Source: Eledone cirrhosa (lineage: Eukaryota). From it: a stretch of 64,000 bases of DNA. The translations under genes and the position numbers were made by a program. The first letter of the stretch is position 1. The number at the start of each line of letters is the position of its first letter. The DNA lies in assembly GCA_964016885.1 (NCBI GenBank), contig OZ024749.1:25792001-25856000 (forward strand), written 5' to 3'. Under the pieces are notes generated by a model. The model made no database searches. It was not told where the DNA came from and saw only the letters and a list, made by a program, of their open reading frames with translations. Below are positions 54,996-58,841 of the stretch, one piece after another.

Positions 54996-55332
54996 TAGAA
55001 AGTGAAGTTTTTTTTACAAAATGAAAAATAACCGAGGTGTCCTACACAAGTGAATGTATAAAGAAATAAAGATGAAATCGAAAATGCAACTAGAGTCTTA
55101 TTTAAAAAATATATATATATTTGGTTCCTTTACCGGTTTCGCAGTTCTTCTGCTTTTCAAAAGTAGAGTTGAGATGGATGGTCTGCGGTTTTTCTCACAC
55201 AGACCCTCCATCTCACCTCTACTTTTGAAAAGCAGAATAACTGCGAAACGGGTAAAGGAACCAAATAAATATATATATTTTTTTTTTAAATAAGACTCCA
55301 GTTGCATTTTCGATTTCATCTTTTTTCTTTAC
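54996..55332. mobile_element. Palindromic element (family H) with two opposed U3-A8 variant HHRs (55127-55163 minus, 55221-55258 plus)
   Basis: ctt-TTGAAAA-gcag-aagaa-ctgc-GAAA-ccgg-TA-aag. Arms at about 55069-55185 and 55200-55322. An inverted paralogue is at 58484-58841. Confidence 0.8.
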
Positions 55333-55396
55333 ATATATATATATATATATATATATATATATATATATATATATATATATATATATATATATATAT

Positions 55397-56133
55397 ATGA
55401 AAGACGTAAAATAAGAAAATTATAAAAATTTACTTACTTACTAAAATTTCACTCCAACTAATTAGTTTCTGAAAGGGAATAAACATGGTTTCCGATTGGA
55501 ACAACATGGAGAAATATCCTTTCGTCATCAAGGAGATCTGTTCTCAGCTAAGTTCCCAGGCAAAGCGTGGACACAGGGAACTTATACAAAAATAATTCAG
55601 TGGATGGTAAAAAGCAAGCGAGGACTAGATTCTAGGACATTGAAAAAATCACTGCCTACTTAGTCGGTGGCGAATTCAAGAGAATCAATCACGTGACATC
55701 GAGGTCAATCAGTGAGGAGTGAGGGTGCTAATAAGACAGTAGCCTGGCTATTACTATGAAGCATAGCAGTAGTTTTGGCAAAATTTTGCTCAACAAAATA
55801 ATTTGGAGGTAATTATAAAGAATTAGTATATCTACCAACATATATATACATATGTATATCCATGCTAGCAAATATATAGGTGTTGTCTTAGTAACTTTGT
55901 GGTTCAATGCAAGGGGATACAGAACAATTATATGAAAGACGTAAAATAAGAAAATTATAAAAATTTACTTACTTACTAAAATTTCACTCCAACTAATTAG
56001 TTTCTGAAAGGGAATAAACATGGTTTCCGATTGGAACAACATGGAGAAATATCCTTTCGTCATCTGGGAGATCTGTTCTCAGCTAAGTTCCCAGGCAAAG
56101 CGTGGACACAGGGAACTTATACAAAAATAATTC
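55397..56133 (-). mobile_element. Retrozyme-like element: 535-bp unit with about 200-bp direct repeats, each holding an HHR (family I; 55452-55535, 55987-56070)
   Basis: ctcc-(TT/CA)GATGA-cgaaagg...cctttca-GAAA-ctaattag-TT-ggag. Each copy has a different single core substitution. Confidence 0.8.
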
Positions 56134-56139
56134 TGGGTT

Positions 56140-56233
56140 ATACCTTTTCCTATTACCCACTCTACTACCCTAAGTATTGAGTACTCTGGTGCGTTATTAT
56201 GGTCCACCTGGTTCATTACCACAATTCCTTCGT
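56140..56233 (+). mobile_element. Family-L tail fragment
   Basis: ttcctattacccactctactaccctaagtattgagtactctggtgcgtta...ccttcgta. Confidence 0.7.
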
Positions 56234-56344
56234 ATATAAATACATACATATATATACACACATATATATATTTCCATTTCCATATATATATATATATATA
56301 TATATATATATATCTAACGTCTAAAGTCTGTCTTAATCCAGAAG

Positions 56345-56588
56345 ACTCATTTGGCCGTTGCTTATCCCGATTTCATGGCGTGAAGCGACTGAGAGTACAA
56401 GACTTCCCCAAGGACAGGACGCCAGTCCATCTCATGGTTAAACCTCCAGCTATTGTTGGTACTCATTTTCTGCTGAGTATACTGGAGCAACGTGAAAAGA
56501 TGTGTTTTGCTCAAGAAAACAATACGCAACCCAGGAATCGACATTATGATCGTAGGTCCAACACCCTTACCACTAGGCCTCTAGACGC
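56345..56588 (-). mobile_element. Second SINE-like family
   Basis: The minus strand has ggcctagtggtaagggtgttgga (A-box-like) and gtcgattcctggg (B-box-like). Relatives lie at about 9285, 11980 and 60330. Confidence 0.6.
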
Positions 56589-56642
56589 ATATATATATAT
56601 ATGTATATATATATATATATATAGAGAGAGAGAGAGAGAGAG

Positions 56643-56786
56643 AGAAGTGGTTACACAACAGTTAGTTCACCATACCGAGAACAATTGTTTCACCTTAGCG
56701 GATCCTCAGCATTTACGAGCTGAGGATCCGCTAAGGTGAAACAATTGTTCTCGGTATGGTGAACAAACTGTTGCGTAACCACTTCT
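56643..56786. mobile_element. Palindromic element (family J) with an intact HHR at 56716-56753 (+)
   Basis: cgag-CTGAGGA-tccgctaaggt-GAAA-caattg-TT-ctcg. The mirror copy is at about 56675-56710 and a related fragment is at 39114-39178. Confidence 0.8.
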
Positions 56787-56859
56787 ACCTAACTCGTCTC
56801 ATGGACTGAGTGTTCTACCACTACGGATATTACCTTCCAGTGTTCTACCACTATATATA

Positions 56860-57045
56860 TGAAAAAGTATGACCCCGACGGCAGAGCTCAAGCCGTTTCG
56901 ACGGCTCTTTATGGACTAGCCATCGAAACGGCTTGAGCTCTGCCGTCGGGGTCATACTGTTTCCTATTACCCACTCTACTACCCTAAGTATTGAGTACTC
57001 TGGTGCGTTACGGTCCATCTGTTTCCTTACCACAATTCCTTCGTT
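56860..57045 (+). mobile_element. Family-L element folded back on the HHR stem II
   Basis: gaccccgacggcagagctcaagccgtttcgacggct...agccatcgaaacggcttgagctctgccgtcggggtc, then the tail. Confidence 0.75.
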
Positions 57046-57539
57046 ATATATATATATATATATGAAGTTGTATGTATATATATATATATATATATATATA
57101 TATATATATACATATATATATATATATATATATATATATATATATATATATATATATATATATATATATACATACAACTTCATTTTCACTTCGTAATGTA
57201 CTACGCAATATTTCATGTGGAATCTCTTATGGCTATGAAAGAAATTATTTTCATTATTATCACATTATTGTAATTATCTCATTATTATTCTCATTAGCGG
57301 TTGATTGGCCGAATCAGTAGAGCCTCGGTTAACATGTTTTGTGGCAAATAGTTACACCCTTTACACTCTGAGTTCAAATCTTGCATCAGTTAGCTTTGAC
57401 TCTCATTCAACCGGTTCGATAAAATAACGTACCAGTAACGTACTGGTGTCTATTTACACTATTTTCCCGCTACTCCCAAATTGTTGGTCTTGTGATTAAA
57501 TCATAAACCATTATTGTTCTCATAATGTTATTACTAGTA

Positions 57540-58053
57540 TCATATTAATCGTATTACTAGTACTGCTATCACTACTACTAATAGTAATACAAATACTACT
57601 ACTGTTAGTACTACTACTAATACTACTACTAACACCACCACCACCCGCACAGCACCACTACTACTACCACCACCTCTATCACTACTACTACCTGAACCAC
57701 ACCTATCACCTCTACTACTACTACTACTACTACTACTACTACTTCTACTACTACTACTTCTATAACTAACACCATCATCACCACCATCAGCACCACTACT
57801 ACTACTACTACTACTACCACCTCCTCTACCACCACTACTACTACTTCTAACACCAACACCACCACCACCATCATCACCACTTCTACTACTACCACCACCT
57901 CTACCACAACTAATTCTACTACTACTAACACCAGCACCACAAAACATCAGCACCACTACTACTACTAATACTATTAACATCAACACCACTGACATCAGCA
58001 GCGCCACCACTACTACTACTACTACAACTACTTGTAGTAGTAGTAGTAGTAGT
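57540..58053. repeat. Cryptic (CTA/CCA)n trinucleotide tract
   Basis: Low-complexity sequence. Confidence 0.85.
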
Positions 58054-58165
58054 AGCCAGACAGACTTAAATCTGTTTCGCAAGAGGGATATTCAATTTGC
58101 TGGTAATTCAACAAATATAAATGTTTATAACTGATTCAAAGCACTCGACAGTTTTTGAAGTATAC

Positions 58166-58411
58166 TATTCAATGATATTAAATAAATGGAAACTATATTT
58201 ATAAAAGTATATTTATTCTATTATATATATTTCAAGGGTACCAAAACTTTGTTGGTACGCTATCATCAGAAAAAATACAAAGTTTGTTTTGTAAATATTG
58301 ACATAACCAGGAAAGAAGAACTTAACGGTTCAAGTTTTTCCTGGTTAGGAAAAACTAGAATCGTTAAGTTCTTATAAATATAGTTTCCATATATTTAATA
58401 TCATTGAATAT
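58166..58411 (-). mobile_element. Family-F element with inverted termini and a core-intact HHR (58214-58277 minus)
   Basis: tatttttt-CTGATGA-tagcgtaccaacaaagttttggtaccctt-GAAA-tatata-TA-atagaata. The termini are shared with 45624-45890. Confidence 0.75.
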
Positions 58412-58483
58412 ATATATATATATATATATATATATATATATATATATATATATATATATATATATATATATATATATATATAT

Positions 58484-58841
58484 AAAGAAAATGAGATGAA
58501 ATCGAAAATGCAACTAGAGTCTTATTTTTTTTTTAAATATATATATTTATTTGGTTCCTTTACCGGTTTCGCAGTTCTTCTGCTTTTCAAAAGGTGAGTT
58601 GAGATGGAGGGTCTGTGGTTTTTCTCAGAGATGTGAGAAAAACCACAGACCCTCCATCTCAACTCACCTTTTGAAAAGCAGAAGAACTGCAAAACCGGTA
58701 AAGGAACCAAATAAATATATATATTTTTTTTTAAATAAGACTCCAGTTGCATTTTCGATTTCATCTCATTTTCTTTATACTTTCACTCGTGTAGGACACC
58801 TCGGTTATTTTTCATTTTGTATAAAAAACCTCACTTTCTAA
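58484..58841. mobile_element. Palindromic family-H element; fully paired U3-A8 HHR at 58557-58594 (minus)
   Basis: cctt-TTGAAAA-gcagaagaactgc-GAAA-ccgg-TA-aagg. The plus-arm copy has GAAA changed to AAAA. Confidence 0.8.

Follow-up and report, generated by a model that had tools for sequence, protein, structure and literature searches.

Two palindromes lying close together in a 64,000-nt stretch of the Eledone cirrhosa genome (contig OZ024749.1; the window, in whose coordinates all positions are given) are truncated pLTR ends of a young, very abundant autonomous Neptune-like Penelope retrotransposon. We consider it probable that they are independent insertions, each made afresh by a reverse transcriptase (RT) that primed on each of the two nicked strands at a (TA)n target and copied RNA to its likely 5′ end. 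Each palindrome carries hammerhead motifs in which the usual C3-G8 pair is replaced by U3-A8.

Two palindromes and their parent element

Element 1 (54,995–55,331; haplotype TA-C-CTT) lies in a (TA)n tract and consists of two 5′-truncated Penelope pLTR fragments joined head to head. It ends on one side in a 64-nt tail (54,995–55,058, minus strand), and the identical sequence immediately precedes ORF1 in full-length copies. Arm 1 (55,127–55,164, minus strand) holds an intact minimal hammerhead with a U3-A8 core, a 3-bp stem I and a predicted cut after 55,131. The arms extend to −39 and −27 relative to U3 and meet with a 2-nt overlap at 55,198–55,199. Element 2 (58,483–58,841; haplotype AC-C-CTC) is an independent head-to-head insertion of the same family, likewise in a (TA)n tract, and has its 64-nt tail at 58,778–58,841 on the plus strand. 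Its arm 3 (58,557–58,594, minus strand) contains an intact minimal hammerhead with a U3-A8 core, a GUA triplet, stems I and II of 4 bp each, a palindromic stem III and a predicted cut after 58,561. At the junction (58,627–58,629) the arms reach −37 and −42, with an extra G at 58,628 and the putative RNA 5′ end at 58,629. A preliminary description had the two elements inverted relative to each other about 3.2 kb apart, with the same one-sided extension and fold-backs at almost the same place. The inversion (at a separation of about 3,150 nt) and the extension (64 nt on a single arm of each) are as described; both elements do fold back within one hot zone, but the exact points differ, with core-to-core gaps of 60 nt in element 1 and 76 nt in element 2. 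Reading 54,995–58,841 as a single composite element was rejected, as nothing else of the parent lies between the palindromes; the differing haplotypes, junctions and flanks of the two elements also contradict it.

Full-length parents (locus L078 and others) run from a pLTR with hammerhead through the tail, ORF1, an ORF2 encoding RT and GIY-YIG domains and a 3′ UTR of about 1 kb to a second hammerhead, which was present 3′ of ORF2 in all 20 long loci examined. The family comprises dozens of intact copies, and 31 of the 33 copies compared diverge from L078 by less than 1% in ORF2. An RT with a C-terminal GIY-YIG endonuclease, the hallmark of EN+ Penelope-like elements, is found in the parent: the Pfam GIY-YIG match (27.6 bits) is above its cut-off, the RVT_1 match (E = 4.9e-6, 26.8 bits) falls below the cut-off of 29.6 bits, DKG and YLDD motifs are in place, and 29 and 27 of 36 aligned relatives match RVT_1 and GIY-YIG, respectively. 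Motifs of the Neptune/Nematis type are also there: the linker ahead of GIY-YIG, of the form CX2-5CxxC in that type, is CX4CxxC at residue 645, and the CxxC between GIY and YIG lies at residue 683. A direct upstream pLTR (partial tandem) accompanies 7 of 40 long loci and an inverted 5′-truncated copy accompanies many; at locus L325, a piece spanning −40 to +108 is inverted against a main copy that begins at +132. ORF1 and the RT ORF overlap in the −1 frame, and a conserved −1 frameshift site is a side finding. A candidate 5′ leader intron (some Penelope-like elements have one), with donor and acceptor picked by eye and the donor overlapping the GUA triplet, is unsupported: the search for a spliced genomic copy gave two matches, both deletions at another point, and contigs of three sequencing runs of unknown kind held no matching joint.

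A minimal hammerhead with a U3-A8 pair

As the preliminary description had it, TTGAAAA replaces CTGANGA and stem II is GCAG/CTGC in all four arms. Its claim of a CCGG stem III holds for three of them, and its claim of a hammerhead in each arm for two. Arm 2 (55,221–55,258, plus strand) reads CGGG in stem III through a C>G change at 55,250 and has a further change in loop II, and arm 4 (58,667–58,704, plus strand) lacks the essential G12 through CpG decay (CpG>CpA at 58,691), a loss which that description did not mention. The two elements also differ in stem I, which has 3 bp in element 1 against 4 bp in element 2. A descriptor scan that left positions 3 and 8 free found just arms 1 and 3, and these have every feature of a minimal type I hammerhead (N3-UGA-N-N8-A, GAAA, NUH and three helices), which arms 2 and 4 do not. 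No bulged base stands between positions 9 and 10.1, where the Cervera consensus has one; stem II starts directly after A9. Genome-wide, the core pattern matched 11,752 times, compared with 0 for a reversed control. Pattern matching was used because a DNA-similarity search of the same genome with an 81-nt arm, by a method that skips very common words, returned no match. It had also been proposed that standard searches miss this variant. Rfam indeed finds none in the window; the cause is not the U3-A8 pair, since the canonical C3-G8 minimal hammerheads at 2,813–2,877 and 27,248–27,502 are missed as well.

Within the family, positions 3 and 8 decay singly only: we counted 71 single changes at position 3, 47 at position 8, and no double changes. 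Independent variation of the two positions among copies had been named beforehand as evidence against a functional variant. It is formally what the copies show, yet it is uninformative, as only 0.28 double changes were expected by chance. A C3-G8 sister with the same stem II gave 0 matches in the genome itself, and covariation was therefore tested in loci of other organisms; when the Eledone genome was searched with a relative of 66% identity, only the palindromes' own family came back. Across related families, all nine motifs have a Watson-Crick 3-8 pair (seven C-G, two U-A), and the pair is kept in 26 of 27 sense matches over all 87 loci, A-U and G-C included. Stem III is palindromic in all nine relatives, in five different sequences, and the scan had left those four bases free; the family's own CCGG is likewise palindromic and permits a dimer. 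We uphold the reading of the motif as a minimal type I hammerhead in which U3-A8 is a compensatory pair. The covariation across families suggests selection on the motif in the parent lineage, where the predicted hammerhead is likely functional.

We predict that the hammerhead cuts only as a dimer via its palindromic stem III and/or with the help of protein. In a study of an anole element, the hammerhead is reported to be protein-assisted and dispensable in vitro (PMC11167929). In the palindrome fragments the hammerhead is probably a passenger; it is already damaged in two of the four. The monomer folds no better than shuffled sequences (z = −0.76), which is expected for a minimal motif and says nothing either way. 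That the motif is a dead relic, in which U3-A17 pairing extends stem I, traps the hammerhead and has cost it its cutting, strikes us as unlikely. The predicted fold does pair U3 with A17, for a modelled gain of 1.7 kcal/mol, and would be analogous to a proposed C3-G17 trap (PMC3884650); metazoan minimal hammerheads also cut poorly in vitro, and no copy end in the census below lies near the cut site. Against such decay, the active family retains every other core position intact, along with G10.1-C11.1 and the palindromic stem III, and of the nine relatives that keep the 3-8 pair, one of the two with U-A also has A17.

Ends, tails and junctions of the palindromes

The census of fold-back centres called for in the preliminary description was run on 100 arms of 50 independent palindromes, and the shared fold-back zone is real and family-wide. 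Measured from U3 of the core, 59 arms start at −43 to −27, none at −61 to −44, and 37 further upstream. At the 3′ side there are two fixed ends 64 nt apart: 53 arms end at the tail and 39 at or slightly short of the short end. Exactly one 64-nt tail is present in 48 of the 50 palindromes. None of the 100 arms ends near the hammerhead cut site, and cleavage as the process that sets copy ends was rejected. Within the T/A run, a suspected bias of the tail-bearing arm did not reach significance (18 versus 15, p = 0.73).

The preliminary description suggested that the palindrome may propagate as a unit. A non-autonomous element transcribed and retrotransposed as one piece might explain why 1,905 palindromes genome-wide share a gap of 55–85 nt, why one junction type recurs in 12 of the 50, and why nearly all have one tail. 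The proposal is largely refuted, and we regard it as very improbable, because the junctions vary: the 50 palindromes have 17 different gap lengths, and the commonest junction occurs six times in each orientation relative to the tail and on at least four haplotypes. Elements 1 and 2 themselves share neither junction nor haplotype. The two arms of a palindrome resemble each other more than either resembles the same-side arms of other palindromes, with divergence of 2.6% within elements versus 4.3–5.2% between them, and subfamily markers agree between arms in 45 of 50 palindromes, compared with about 25 when shuffled. Among the first 100 matches there are 23 head-to-head pairs, of which 10 have gaps of 61–79 nt and the others gaps from 17 to 3,508 nt, and a read-through RNA is predicted to fold into a −231 kcal/mol hairpin that would bury the ribozyme. 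A unit-length palindromic element of the MITE or fold-back type was likewise rejected, the fixed shared centre and ends of such elements being absent in view of the 17 gap lengths.

Independent insertion, the reading we prefer, would proceed as follows. At a (TA)n target nicked on both strands, the element's RT would prime on each strand and copy a short RNA stretch back to the RNA's likely 5′ end, whereupon the two cDNA ends would be joined head to head. By analogy with an anole element, the two 3′ ends would be internal RT start sites, and priming of the two target strands at these two sites would leave one 64-nt tail per palindrome. In that element the tail is the interval between two RT start sites, and both strands are cut and extended (PMC11167929). 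A point against this scheme is that making both arms from a single RNA would require strand displacement.

On the 5′ side, the arms have a sharp boundary some 42 nt upstream of U3 that is likely the RNA 5′ end and may reflect a transcription start within the pLTR. A transcription start inside the pLTR has been reported for Penelope-like elements. All seven full-length copies with a direct upstream pLTR extend beyond −42 and none begins there, so the simple start-site reading fails for long copies. Of 328 solo copies, the first 100 include 36 with an extra G before −42, which is not clearly above a control at −36 (6 of 25, p = 0.35, after 20 of 45 rows had been dropped as apparent mutated longer copies; p = 0.02 with all 45 rows). 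We weighed whether −42 marks a point on a long transcript at which the RT stalls or the RNA is processed, the palindromes arising by ordinary 5′ truncation and inversion at a hot spot. The seven long copies and the indecisive cap-G control are compatible with such a site, but the distribution drops off abruptly on one side (43 of 100 arms begin at −43 to −38, next to the empty interval upstream), both arms of the commonest junction end at −41/−42, the region folds no better than shuffled sequences (z = 0.02), and 37 arms pass through the site. On balance we find this account somewhat unlikely.

A further proposal, possible if doubtful in our estimate, is that the short copies derive mainly from solo pLTR fragments that have their own promoter and re-amplify as a SINE-like RNA of 150–215 nt by means of the parent's enzyme. 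Most copies are short, with 63 of 100 arms starting at or after −43, and in sequencing run X1 the summed contig depth of the terminal 220 nt is several-fold that just upstream and hundreds-fold that of ORF1, a rough measure that gives no copy number. Priming at the 5′ leader of full-length mRNA would, however, yield the same product. A SINE-like source is compatible with de novo palindrome formation and would alter only the RNA source.

More speculatively, and with little expectation that it is correct, we suggest that two leader RNAs joined via the palindromic stem III might be delivered to one pair of nicks, each being copied from a different start to its capped 5′ end. Such delivery would fit the strict one-tail rule, arms that both reach the same 5′ end, and the conservation of the palindromic stem III. 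It would also fit the 3 palindromes of 50 in which the two arms differ in subfamily allele at both marker sites. If true, the hammerhead would serve Penelope insertion mainly as an RNA dimerisation signal and not as a cutter.

Comparison with known elements

PMC4209133, PMC8557442 and PMC11167929 between them already describe Penelope hammerheads with the U3-A8 core, as well as opposite-strand pairs, inverted copies and one-sided tails. Cercyon of Schistosoma mansoni (Cervera and De la Pena 2014, PMC4209133) likewise carries a minimal type I motif in its pLTRs, with U3-A8 covariation, G10.1-C11.1 and a palindromic stem III, mainly in truncated copies; that study reports about 1,300 hits for the U3-A8 variant in Schistosoma Penelope elements, as well as opposite-strand pairs 100–700 bp apart among metazoan Penelope hammerheads. 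Stem II there is 7–8 bp with a bulge, as opposed to 4 bp with no bulge after position 9 in the Eledone family, and copies are heterogeneous, in contrast to the young Eledone family with its uniform set of 11,752 near-identical cores. The compensatory pair itself occurs in a passage of Perreault et al. 2011 (PMC3088659) that gives several natural examples active in vitro and concerns neither the Eledone retrotransposon family nor a dimer-dependent minimal form with A17.

Neptune-type EN+ elements (PMC8557442) share the RT with C-terminal GIY-YIG, the CX4CxxC linker, the CxxC inside GIY-YIG, partial tandems, the inverted 5′-truncated copy, the tail at one end and (TA)n targets. Their tail is 30–40 nt, compared with 64 nt in the Eledone family, whose ORF1 overlap in the −1 frame also sets it apart; the figure 1 legend of that paper allows for a frameshifted ORF1. 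In the Eledone family, unlike in Neptune, short palindromes are the commonest product owing to a sharp 5′ boundary. The Poseidon element PAc of Anolis carolinensis (PMC11167929) resembles it in having two fixed copy ends that bound the tail, AT-rich targets and no ends at the hammerhead cut site, but the C3-G8 core of PAc overlaps the ORF start and its RT start sites lie inside the ORF, while the two putative start sites of the Eledone family lie in the leader before ORF1. An identity with retrozymes was rejected on the same census of arm ends and on the head-to-head arrangement of the copies. Retrozymes consist of head-to-tail monomers delimited by ribozyme cut sites, whereas the Eledone copies are head-to-head pieces of an autonomous element. 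What they have in common with non-LTR retrozymes (PMC7229834) is that these, too, are short, non-autonomous repeats of animal genomes and carry type I hammerheads.

With the core variant and the insertion anatomy already in print, the finding is mostly ordinary. The value of the family is as a test bed: it is young, and it offers about 1,900 short palindromes next to its intact copies. Its strict geometry, with two 3′ ends, one tail per insertion and one 5′ boundary, leads to predictions that can be put to genomes on the mechanism of Penelope insertion and on the role of Penelope hammerheads.

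The palindromes and their parent element

Both palindromes of the window, element 1 (54995-55331, arms 1 and 2) and element 2 (58483-58841, arms 3 and 4), lie in (TA)n tracts. As the preliminary description had it, they are mutually inverted, the TTGAAAA core and GCAG/CTGC stem II are present in 4/4 arms on re-reading, and a 64-nt extension, the tail, occurs on one arm per element. The CCGG stem III attributed to every arm is CGGG in arm 2, and arm 4 carries G12A, a CpG decay; arms 2 and 4 (2/4) are broken as hammerheads. A descriptor scan of the window with positions 3 and 8 free recovered only arms 1 (55127-55164, minus strand) and 3 (58557-58594, minus strand). 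The fold-back points fall within one zone, yet the junctions are unlike and the core-to-core gap is 60 nt in one palindrome and 76 nt in the other. An Rfam search of the 64-kb window gave no match at all, in line with the suggestion that standard searches miss the variant, but it also missed the canonical C3-G8 minimal motifs that the descriptor scan found at 2813-2877 and 27248-27502, so U3-A8 is not the cause. A second palindromic family (27207-27543 and 2759-2942) bears a minimal hammerhead of the canonical C3-G8 type, in which stem II is long and stem III is palindromic.

The idea that the two elements are parts of one parent copy was rejected, as no further parent sequence lies between them. 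Three smaller palindromes do, all belonging to other repeat families (56643-56786, 56857-56967 and 58316-58373), and a degenerate tandem array of ~52-nt period (54114-54657) adjoins element 1 on its left.

Across the 3.0-Gb animal assembly carrying the window, the core pattern had 11,752 matches (reversed control, 0) and a flank-only pattern 14,331. The terminal part of a GIY-YIG frame, found 5' of one copy, served as a query for long open frames in the genome, and 40 long loci were fetched from among copies with such frames. In one full-length parent copy, L078, a pLTR with hammerhead is followed by the tail, ORF1 (409 codons stop to stop), ORF2 (775 codons), a 3' UTR of ~1 kb and a second hammerhead 4.68 kb downstream of the first. 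ORF2 matched Pfam GIY-YIG above and RVT_1 below cut-off and contains DKG, YLDD, a CX4CxxC linker and a CxxC inside GIY-YIG, sharing the linker and cysteine pattern described for Neptune/Nematis (PMC8557442). By ungapped comparison, ORF2 is within 1% of L078 in 31/33 copies (L078 counted); the other two have indels. The elements described in PMC8557442 show copies in inverted orientation, a tail at one end only and (TA)n targets, as in the window palindromes.

ORF1 and the RT-endonuclease ORF overlap in the -1 frame (L078:3171-3261). An in-frame U UUU UU(A/G) slippery heptamer occurs in the parent and in 6/6 relatives examined (L218, L219, L220, L226, L229 and L298; 33-46% identity), pointing to a predicted, conserved programmed -1 frameshift, which figure 1 of PMC8557442 may cover. 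A candidate 5' leader intron (L078:1888-1984) has its donor overlapping the hammerhead GUA triplet and its acceptor in the tail; neither a spliced copy nor a joint was found among genomic copies and sequencing-run contigs. Loci L298-L304 come from contigs binned as bacterial genomes and are animal-type Penelope elements, probably host DNA that entered the bins. Elsewhere in the window, two inverted-repeat structures (3874-6770 and 34450-40182) have frames of 618 and 637 codons that by eye look like Penelope-type RT/GIY-YIG proteins; a Pfam search of these frames gave no hit for either. A 6.6-kb low-complexity repeat (18100-24750) has extreme strand skew and >2,100 codons open in several frames.

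Positions 3 and 8 of the hammerhead

Among the 11,752 family cores, position 3 differs in 71, all with A8, and position 8 in 47, all with U3. Such single changes could be read as independent variation, held beforehand to count against a 3-8 pair, but they are post-insertion decay and silent on pairing; no double change was seen and only 0.28 were expected by chance. Nor did the genome yield any C3-G8 motif that shares this stem II, and we therefore turned to related loci for a covariation test. In 87 loci of related proteins fetched from public contigs, we scanned for the motif with stem III required to be palindromic or missing and no constraint on positions 3 and 8. Sense hits numbered 27, some of them repeats of one family (shuffled control, 0.2 hits per pass). 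The 3-8 pair was Watson-Crick in 26 (19 C-G, 5 U-A, 1 A-U and 1 G-C). A second scan, which also freed the four stem III bases, covered 18 of the 87 loci, hand-picked for highest similarity among those whose ORF end was defined (31-49% identity), three with almost no downstream DNA. A motif was found in 9/18; all nine had a Watson-Crick 3-8 pair (7 C-G, 2 U-A) and a palindromic stem III, in five different sequences, against 0.005 shuffled hits per pass with both conditions. The parent's own 3' UTR gave one extra hit with neither feature. Because pair and palindrome persist across relatives, structural selection appears to act on the motif in this lineage, and the motif looks built for dimers. 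The reading of U3-A8 as compensatory holds, and natural U3-A8 covariation has been reported (Perreault et al. 2011, PMC3088659). Counting against activity in this family, a U3-A17 pair is predicted, which extends stem I with a gain of 1.7 kcal/mol and resembles the C3-G17 trap proposed in PMC3884650.

Junctions, copy ends and insertion

Palindromes with a 55-85 nt gap number 1,905 genome-wide; the sample analysed was drawn from the first 50 of the list, with the two of the window added (52 rows for arm divergence; 50 for junctions, two duplicates dropped). Subfamily markers agreed between arms of one element in 45/50 (~25 when shuffled), and arms diverge by 2.6% within elements versus 4.3-5.2% between them. 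The concordance by itself would fit copying of the palindrome as a unit, as had been suggested, but the junctions do not: the 50 palindromes have 17 gap lengths rather than a shared fold-back centre, and the commonest junction (12/50) occurs in both orientations relative to the tail (6 + 6) and on at least four haplotypes. A read-through transcript would moreover fold into a hairpin of -231 kcal/mol, and unit copying is not supported. With arms on opposite strands, a hammerhead dimer in cis is impossible. The arms of L104, L181 and L182 differ in allele at each of the two markers, a sign of either two templates or recombination at a later time. A run of T and then of A (55272-55292, 58522-58540 and 58718-58736) recurs in 38 palindromes; its total length is near-constant (equal in 23/38 arm pairs) and its T/A boundary differs between arms in 35/38, which suggests that templates were switched locally or that the assembly is responsible.

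Copy ends were taken from the first 100 core matches on contig C1. At the 3' side, the tail is the end point of 53 arms, and 39 reach, or almost reach, a short end 64 nt earlier; 0/100 end near the hammerhead cut site. Relative to U3, 59 arms start at -43..-27 (43 at -43..-38), 4 closer and 37 further upstream, with 0/100 at -61..-44. Exactly one tail is present in 48/50 palindromes. The tail of the anole element is reported to run from one internal RT start site to a second; the target is cut and extended on both strands, and the hammerhead is protein-assisted and dispensable for insertion in vitro (PMC11167929); transcription of Penelope and a Chlamys element is reported to begin in the pLTR (PMC2377424). 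From these we infer that each target strand is primed, one per start site within the leader, and that both cDNA strands are copied up to an RNA 5' end near -42. Locus L325, where a -40..+108 piece is inverted against a main copy beginning at +132, fits two-site priming on a single RNA.

Solo copies that start at -42 number 328; among the first 100, counted by eye, 36 have a non-templated G immediately before that point and none has one a base further out. Element 2 has the extra G at 58628. In L1 insertions of full length, such a G is reported as a mark of cap copying (PMC11702581, preprint). A control at -36 weakens this evidence for a cap: G occurred in 6/25 rows (p = 0.35) after 20/45 rows that look like mutated longer copies were dropped, and p was 0.02 with all 45. 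Against a start site, where a full-length copy has an upstream pLTR in direct orientation, the copy never begins at -42 (0/7). On the pattern of copy ends, -42 is nonetheless likely the RNA start site.

Our literature search, confined to article text, returned no paper on the family or on short palindromes arising from a fixed 5' boundary, and the -1 frameshift in Neptune elements only in one figure legend; on that scope none of the three can be called unpublished. The U3-A8 variant is already known: Schistosoma Cercyon hammerheads are reported as U3-A8 (~1,300 hits; Cervera and De la Pena 2014, PMC4209133), and the same study describes pairs on opposite strands, a palindromic helix III and weak cleavage of dimers. 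For the study of Penelope insertion, the geometry shared across the family offers a useful handle.
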